Sequence record: NC_054914.1
Length of the DNA stretch: 64,000 nucleotides
Source: Escherichia phage vB_EcoM-fFiEco06
Strand: one strand, 5' to 3'
The notes under the pieces were generated by a model. The model was not told where the DNA came from, did not search any database, and saw nothing but the letters and a program-made list of their open reading frames with translations. Position numbers and translations under genes: made by a program. Positions 38,881-39,635 of the stretch are shown here, in pieces; position 1 is the first letter of the stretch; each line of letters begins with the position of its first letter.

Positions 38881-39429
38881 ACCCAAGAAAACATCTACTG
38901 ATCGTTGATACCACTGCAAATCCAAATAGCCATTACGCACATTAAACTGATAGAACATATGACAAGGCGGTAATGCCATCTGCTTGAGTTCAGCTGGATT
39001 CCATGCTGAAACAATTTGACGCCTATCATTTGGCAATTTTTTAATACGATCAATAACTTCTATAATTTGGTCTACACCACCAAAATCACGCCACTGTTTT
39101 CCATAAATTGGACCAAGTTCACCGCTATGGTATCCTAAATCTTTTGCTTGATTTTCGTAATTTTCATCCCAAACTGTTTTGCCTTGGATTAACGAATCAT
39201 GTTGAATTAATCGCAAATCATTGACATTTGTGCTTCCCGATAAAAACCAAAGCAGCTCAGCAATGCAAGCTTTCCAGGCGAGCTTCTTAGTTGTTACTGC
39301 AGGAAAACCTTTAGTTAAATCCCAGCGTAATTTAGTACCGAACAAAGCAATTGTTCCTGTGCCTGTTCGGTCATCGGTTTCGTAGCCATTTTCCAGGATA
39401 TCTTTAATTAAAAATTGGTATTGTTTCAT
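38881..39429 (-). CDS. td: Thymidylate synthase, exon 1
   Basis: MKQYQ… to …RSVDVFLG; the active-site Cys (…PPCHMFYQF…) lies in this exon. Confidence 0.9.
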
Positions 39430-39635
39430 TAGTTCATCCAAGAATATGTAGAAGGATATTTGGCAAAGTTAGGCTTATATCCTAATTTAACCATTTGTTT
39501 TGCTTTGCGAGTAAATCCTAAAGAACGCTCACCTTTAAGATATTGTTTTGGTGTCATAGGCCCTTGATGCATCTGCCGACAAATAAAAAGGGCCATAGCA
39601 TTAGGAACATCCTTAACTTTTAATTTATTGCTCAT
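39429..39635 (-). CDS. Hypothetical 68-aa protein translationally coupled between frd and td
   Basis: Start ATG overlaps the frd TGA (ATGA); stop TAA overlaps the td ATG (TAATG). Confidence 0.55.

Follow-up and report, generated by a model that had tools for sequence, protein, structure and literature searches.

In phage T4, the overlap of frd (dihydrofolate reductase) and td (thymidylate synthase) in a single ATGA is a classic case of adjacent, co-transcribed nucleotide-metabolism genes. In Escherichia phage vB_EcoM-fFiEco06 (NC_054914.1), of which a stretch of 64,000 nt was analysed (hereafter the window), a 68-codon ORF, here called Y, lies between the same two genes and overlaps both. The locus thus raises the questions of whether Y is a gene, how it came to be present here and absent in T4, and what its product might do. 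A sequence-only reading of the window had offered a choice between insertion in this phage and loss in T4; we compared the junction across T4-like phages and examined the predicted protein.

A conserved ORF between frd and td

The following features, ordered by position in the window, were used throughout:

37553..37867, minus strand: remainder of thymidylate synthase, past the intron
37868..38877, minus strand: td intron, which encodes I-TevI
38012..38749, minus strand: I-TevI homing endonuclease in the td intron, with GIY-YIG, I-TevI zinc finger and I-TevI DNA-binding domains
38890..39429, minus strand: td exon 1 (thymidylate synthase; PF00303 profile positions 1-172, E=4.4e-62; also from the annotation in fHoEco02)
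39426..39430, minus strand: right AATGA copy, the end of the Y stop codon (TAA) overlapping the td start codon (ATG)
39429..39635, minus strand: Y, an ATG-started ORF of 68 aa belonging to PHROG 9550, basic and with three predicted helices
39632..39636, minus strand: left AATGA copy, the frd stop codon (TGA) overlapping the Y start codon (ATG)
39632..40213, minus strand: frd (dihydrofolate reductase), of T4-type sequence (PF00186, E=3.6e-19)

The sequence-only reading had placed the ORF exactly, with the correct start codon and translation, and had named frd and td as its neighbors, in agreement with the matches to the dihydrofolate reductase (PF00186) and thymidylate synthase (PF00303) families. 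The overlaps it described can be read from the sequence on both sides. At the frd/Y junction (TATATAAATGAGC, minus strand 39642..39630), the frd TGA (39634..39632) overlaps the Y ATG (39635..39633), forming ATGA at 39635..39632. At the Y/td junction (TAATGAAAC, minus strand 39431..39423), the Y TAA (39431..39429) and the td ATG (39429..39427) share one base, forming TAATG at 39431..39427, and td translation begins at that shared base. The 3´ codons of Y, TGG ATG RAC, place a GGA 9-11 nt ahead of the td ATG. The direct ATGA that the same reading gave for T4 was present in both T4 records (AF158101 and NC_000866) and also in RB55 and RB59 (GTATATAAATGAAACAATACC). Relative to this T4 junction, the window has the same TATAAATGA context at the frd 3´ end and the same td start, ATGAAACAATACC, but carries 203 extra bases encoding Y between the AATGA copies, such that one overlap (ATGA) becomes two (ATGA and TAATG).

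The window derives from a Tequatrovirus, and the 701-nt stretch compared (39200..39900) is 100% identical to phage vB_EcoM-fHoEco02, in which the gene identical to Y is annotated as hypothetical protein AUV61367.1. We found no paralogues of Y in the window. In the matching genome, 1- or 4-nt overlaps occur at 26 of 72 same-strand junctions and 13 of 70 genes (19%), frd among them, overlap their neighbors on both sides. The start/stop overlaps flanking Y are therefore not unusual for this genome. No promoter-like or terminator-like sites were detected in 39400-39700, in or next to Y, and Y therefore depends on the frd-td transcript. Y would be transcribed within the early/middle nucleotide-metabolism unit to which frd and td belong, and the overlaps make it probable that its translation is coupled to that of frd, and the translation of td in turn to that of Y.

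Several lines of evidence bear on whether Y is a gene. The PHROG 9550 family HMM matched Y over its full length (E=1.3e-45, residues 1-68 on profile positions 1-68 of 68), as well as all 22 family members in our alignment. Using tblastn, Y was detected in 236 phage records. Interruption of the ORF in relatives had been named in advance as grounds for doubting it; no interrupted copies were seen in these records, and 234 of the 236 matches cover at least 80% of the protein. Pairwise dN/dS values for Y were 0.12 against JS98, 0.16 against Marfa and 0.23 against CIP9, with an overall range of 0.12-0.32 and dS values reaching 1.2. The chance of finding 68 open codons in a given frame is ~0.007 (at 35% GC, where ~7% of random codons are stops); this is a weaker argument than conservation and dN/dS, which settle the matter: as judged from sequence comparison, Y is a real, conserved phage gene. 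Searching 1.8 billion representative proteins exhaustively with a profile gave 11 matches at E<=0.001, ten of them small (70-96 aa) basic proteins and one a spurious repeat protein; all Y-like matches whose source was traced were from phages or phage-like sequences. A scan of viral contigs gave nine loci, all encoding the Y family.

The gene is also already known, being catalogued as PHROG 9550 and labeled "hypothetical protein" in more than 100 GenBank phages; the entries for fHoEco02 (AUV61367.1) and Marfa (YP_009850431.1) belong to the same family and do not differ from it. The presence of the same ORF with a known function in relatives was another outcome that the sequence-only reading had held against itself. 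The first half of this was observed, as both close and distant relatives carry an annotated Y at this position; these annotations assign it no function, and our literature search found no paper on PHROG 9550 or on the Y ORF. We also noted that Y is labeled inconsistently in GenBank, Shinka, PYPS2T, Paracelsus and JS98 being cases in point: most records give "hypothetical protein", one "DUF4858" and one "flagellar biosynthesis protein". Neither of the last two labels has Pfam support. Y is unannotated in Paracelsus and in the original JS98 record, and IME339 carries a truncated call of 42 aa, although its full 68 codons are intact.

In JS98 (Dhakavirus), Klebsiella phage Marfa, Enterobacter phage CIP9 and Serratia phage 4S, td directly follows Y and overlaps it by 1 or 4 nt. 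In all, it precedes td in at least five T4-like lineages: Tequatrovirus, Dhakavirus, Marfavirus, Kanagawavirus (CIP9) and Serratia phage 4S. In Marfa, CIP9 and 4S, one or two extra ORFs, homologous to the X ORF described below, separate frd from Y, giving the order frd-X1-X2-Y-td in CIP9. Across lineages the identity of Y (52-81%) falls between that of Frd (37-66%) and that of Td (78-89%), which fits long vertical residence upstream of td. Y is probably old at this position, which it holds in several lineages of the Straboviridae. The family also occurs elsewhere: gp235 of the Phapecoctavirus phAPEC8 is a Y homologue (43% identical) whose gene lies among small unannotated ORFs in a block of 24 kb that has annotated host-dependent promoters; the phAPEC8 thymidylate synthase is 35 kb away, on the opposite strand. 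This distance indicates that the Y family is not specific to td. For phAPEC8 and two metagenomic contigs, all neighbors of the distant homologues were unannotated small ORFs, revealing neither a conserved partner nor, outside of the T4-like phages, an X-Y module.

Three alleles of the frd-td junction

Comparison of the junction across T-even relatives, which the sequence-only reading had proposed as a check, revealed three alleles:

T4-type allele: interval empty, direct ATGA overlap; 35 records, largely T4 itself, RB55/RB59 and HY03
Y-type allele: the 68-aa ORF Y; 133 records at >=90% protein identity
T2-type allele: X, an ORF of 115 aa not related to Y, and two spacers (20 and 45 nt); 363 records at >=90% identity

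The Y-type records include some from Dhakavirus. The direct T4-type junction is the rarest state among close relatives of T4 and the T2-type junction the commonest, such that the textbook frd/td overlap represents a minority state. Of the earlier proposal of an insertion here or a loss in T4, the precise in-operon indel that preserves the start/stop overlaps holds up; the choice is not binary, however, given that the commonest allele is a third one. Both gain and precise absence of Y occur, the latter being evident from the comparison of JS98 with IME08.

The T2-type ORF X (PHROG 1928) occupies the same slot in the phage T2 locus (1790..2137 of the extracted T2 sequence) as Y does in the window (39429..39635). 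As for Y, no function is assigned to X, and X is bracketed by a direct repeat, in this case of 9 nt (TAAATGAAA), the collapse of which would yield the T4 junction. X differs from Y in its unrelated sequence, in being separated from its neighbors by non-coding spacers (20 and 45 nt) where Y has overlapping codons, and in being far the commoner allele in Tequatrovirus. The spacers include a TATAAT-like sequence before td. One record labels X a "putative homing endonuclease", which we consider unsupported, as X has no Pfam match or nuclease domain.

Y itself is bracketed by the 5-nt direct repeat AATGA (39636..39632 and 39430..39426), which exists because the Y start and stop codons overlap the neighboring genes. 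This is the only repeat flanking Y, the flanks being coding sequence. Removal of one AATGA copy together with the intervening sequence gives TATAAATGAAACAATACC, which is exactly the T4 junction and, in a Dhakavirus background, the IME08 junction; the sequence shared by T4 and IME08, AAATGAAACAATAC, is thus reproduced by deletion between the copies. The same precise indel distinguishes the Dhakavirus pair JS98, which has Y, and IME08, which lacks it and has the direct ATGA. These junctions suggest a mechanism in which slippage or microhomology-mediated deletion between the AATGA copies would remove Y cleanly, leaving frd and td joined by ATGA, and homologous recombination in the conserved flanks could bring Y back.

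An additional indel polymorphism was noted one gene upstream of the Y slot, in the frd.1-frd interval. An 81-aa ORF (PHROG 3183, no assigned function) is found there in the window (40213..40458, minus strand), with a 1-nt overlap with the frd start. This ORF is present in T2 and absent from the T4-type phage RB59, which has a 71-nt gap instead.

A Dhakavirus-type patch around Y

Sliding identity and diagnostic sites showed that Y in the window is part of a short stretch that differs in origin from its surroundings:

39370..39631, minus strand: Dhakavirus (JS98/IME08)-type patch in a Tequatrovirus background, comprising Y and the first ~60 nt of td
39370..39355, minus strand: right crossover, between td nt 60 and 75, as defined by diagnostic sites
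frd stop codon, minus strand: left crossover, within a few bases of the stop

By sliding identity, frd is mostly 93-100% identical to RB59 and mostly 72-93% identical to JS98, falling lower in one stretch; over the whole protein, Frd shares 99% of its amino acids with RB59 and 79% with JS98. The relationship is reversed across Y, which is 96-100% identical to JS98 and absent from RB59, and across the first ~60 nt of td (87% to RB59, 97% to JS98). The remainder of td exon 1 is again closer to RB59 (92-100%) than to JS98 (62-87%). For a finer comparison we considered diagnostic sites, defined as positions at which one base is common to T4 and T2 and a different one to JS98 and IME08. All eight such sites in td nt 16-60 of the window are Dhakavirus-type, while the next 42 sites in td are Tequatrovirus-type except for two, and the 36 sites in the 3´ 330 nt of frd are T4-type except for one.

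The same switch between td nt 60 and 75 was found in all five Tequatroviruses with Y that were compared (the window, LH2, a51, sb1 and VIPECOOM02). On the left side, frd is Tequatrovirus-type up to its stop codon, and two of the five phages have kept a Dhakavirus base, the C at position -7 (numbered backwards from the final base of the frd stop). In IME08, a Dhakavirus without Y, frd runs through ATGA straight into a td with the Dhakavirus-type 5´ end; the Dhakavirus-type td sequence is therefore native to Dhakavirus regardless of Y. Dhakavirus-type Y and td 5´ sequence within T4-type flanks point to lateral acquisition by recombination. This pattern, read from sequence, indicates that Y was gained in this lineage from a Dhakavirus-like donor, together with ~60 nt of td, and that the import was recent.

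The simplest account would be a single event, in which recombination in conserved flanks moved Y and ~60 nt of td into a Tequatrovirus from a Dhakavirus-like phage; the patch would then have spread within Tequatrovirus, and recombination would have eroded the donor flank on the left. The common right breakpoint may instead mark the first stretch of adequate homology, in which case the five phages could reflect independent transfers rather than one.

The phages a51 and sb1 carry a second, separate Dhakavirus-type patch inside frd, from -304 to -222 relative to the frd end, which shows that the two genera have exchanged short tracts more than once in this part of the genome. The patch around Y also alters the N-terminus of Td (window 39429..39370, minus strand; td codons 6-13), replacing the T4/T2 form MKQYQDLIKDIFENGYE with the Dhakavirus form. 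This chimeric N-terminus is common to the five Tequatroviruses with Y that were examined.

The Y product and alternative explanations

The Y protein is strongly basic, as the sequence-only reading had noted, with a pI of 10.3 and 13 Lys+Arg against 2 Asp+Glu, and its nearly invariant residues include K4, K6, P11, R20, K34, G40, M48, L51, G52, Y53 and P55. A first AF2 model built on 13 close sequences was poor (pLDDT 54). The model based on an alignment of only 22 sequences (pLDDT 82, pTM 0.56) predicts three helices, at 13-24, 29-38 and 43-50, followed by an extended C-terminus. The searches for homologues and for structural relatives that had been suggested as checks thus returned the PHROG 9550 match and a predicted fold, and no relative of known function. 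Pfam and NCBIfam gave no match to Y, PHROGs gave only its own family, which has no assigned function, and a BFVD structure search recovered only its own family. Sequence searches of the PDB with the profile and two single sequences gave nothing but a chance match at E=0.91. A Foldseek search of the PDB returned homeodomains at E=2.4-9.8, which is not significant; these model-based matches are a lead only, and in these searches Y showed no significant sequence or structure similarity to a known HTH or homeodomain.

Some candidate identities could be set aside. Y is not a homing endonuclease gene, as it has no nuclease domain in Pfam or NCBIfam and is too small at 68 aa, while I-TevI shows its domains in the same kind of scan. 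A PeSL-type mobile regulatory cassette was rejected on the lack of promoter-like or terminator-like matches in 39400-39700. A known anti-phage defence component was rejected as well, with matches to PADLOC for none of the 22 family members.

Our preferred reading, to which we assign a probability of roughly 0.85, is evolutionary and genetic: Y is a genuine, dispensable accessory gene of T4-like phages, which would act as a precise presence/absence cassette upstream of td and would have been re-acquired in this lineage from a Dhakavirus-like donor. For the product, a strongly basic protein of 68 aa with three predicted helices, the role we favor, tentatively and with low confidence, is binding to nucleic acid or an acidic host target as an early host-takeover or accessory factor, rather than action on Td itself. 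Averaged over this suggestion and the evolutionary account, our confidence is slightly better than even.

Other explanations for the retention of Y were considered. Its patchy distribution and lateral spread could reflect selection by host defence systems, Y being an anti-defence (counter-immunity) protein. Within two genera Y is polymorphic for presence and absence, and a nearly identical copy has been exchanged between them; the gene is small and in an early-expressed position, host-dependent promoters are annotated in the block of small ORFs that contains its phAPEC8 homologue, and an unrelated small ORF, X, is an alternative occupant of the same slot. Y has no similarity to any characterised inhibitor, however, and its purifying selection and moderate conservation across genera contrast with the rapid diversification often seen for anti-defence genes. 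The PADLOC result also counts against such a role, though that library holds defence rather than anti-defence proteins. On balance we regard an anti-defence function as unlikely. Somewhat less likely still is a tie to thymidylate synthase or the dNTP-synthesising complex, with Y serving as a small subunit, a chaperone, a regulator of Td or a device that sets the td translation rate. In five lineages Y directly precedes td and overlaps it by 1 or 4 nt, which would fit this, as would the GGA that its last codons provide 9-11 nt before the td ATG and the Dhakavirus-type Td N-terminus that travels with Y in the five Tequatroviruses with Y examined. Yet T4, IME08 and several hundred T2-type phages make Td without Y, and IME08 has the Dhakavirus-type Td N-terminus in the absence of Y. 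The Phapecoctavirus homologues, in an unrelated block of small ORFs 35 kb from thymidylate synthase, also speak against a dedicated Td partner, and closely packed genes with overlapping codons are usual in this genome.

Proximity to the td intron (I-TevI lies ~700 nt from Y in the same gene cluster) raises the improbable alternative that Y is a selfish or nearly neutral passenger, kept by linkage to essential-like genes and perhaps co-converted during I-TevI-driven homing of the intron. The window and T4 both carry the intron, and the T4 lineage lost Y or never had it at no obvious cost. The dN/dS values of 0.12-0.32 over saturating dS instead reflect long-term selection on the Y protein, which has no nuclease domain, and the two elements are distributed independently: a51, sb1, VIPECOOM02 and JS98 have Y but no intron in td, and T4 and RB59 have the intron but not Y. 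I-TevI is possibly a driver of the co-conversion of nearby markers, though it is not required for Y. A more speculative idea, which we likewise consider a long shot, is that Y is a small protein that partners specifically with the thymidylate-synthesis machinery of the phage, or one that acts in counter-defence against a host system that senses or starves dTMP/dNTP synthesis, with the AATGA microhomology selected for precise excision and re-insertion that spares frd-td expression. If true, the locus would be a codon-bounded gene cassette.

As an accessory gene that comes and goes, Y is ordinary for T4-like phages, a neat instance that holds no surprise. Indels and replacements of genes among T4-type phages have been described for mobile regulatory cassettes of the promoter/stem-loop (PeSL) type (Arbiol et al., 2010, PMC2839356) and as part of a plastic accessory gene set (Petrov et al., 2010, PMC2993671). 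Like the ORFs in those studies, Y is a small unassigned ORF present or absent among close relatives and exchanged by recombination. In contrast to the PeSL cassettes, Y has no promoter/stem-loop flanks and is bounded by start and stop codons inside a coding run. The comparison with I-TevI and the free-standing seg/mob genes of T-even phages is similar: precise presence or absence next to conserved genes and a short co-converted donor flank are shared, but Y encodes 68 aa with no nuclease domain and is distributed independently of the intron.

Small accessory ORFs of this kind are the rule in T4-like phages, and Y matters little alone. The locus is nonetheless a clean, well-bounded case of a single-gene swap between genera that spares a tightly packed operon, with a patch of donor sequence, microhomology at the level of codons and a junction that has three alleles. 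Beyond the initial reading, the comparison adds that a third allele dominates, that T4 is in the minority and that the present copy of Y was probably imported from a Dhakavirus-type phage. A conserved, strongly basic protein of this size is also a cheap candidate for knockout and host-range testing.

Two minor observations were made outside of the frd-td junction. An Rfam scan of the whole 64-kb window at gathering thresholds gave no match, not even to a group I intron despite the I-TevI-bearing td intron; the ORF within the intron probably breaks the match to the model. In addition, fHoEco02 is annotated with two adjacent full-length alt-family RNA polymerase ADP-ribosyltransferase genes (record positions 119134..123249, or 1135..5250 of extracted locus L028). 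By offset, the pair would correspond to approximately 16070..20180 in the window, a position extrapolated from fHoEco02. T4, in contrast, has one alt gene together with the small alt.-1 and alt.-2 ORFs.
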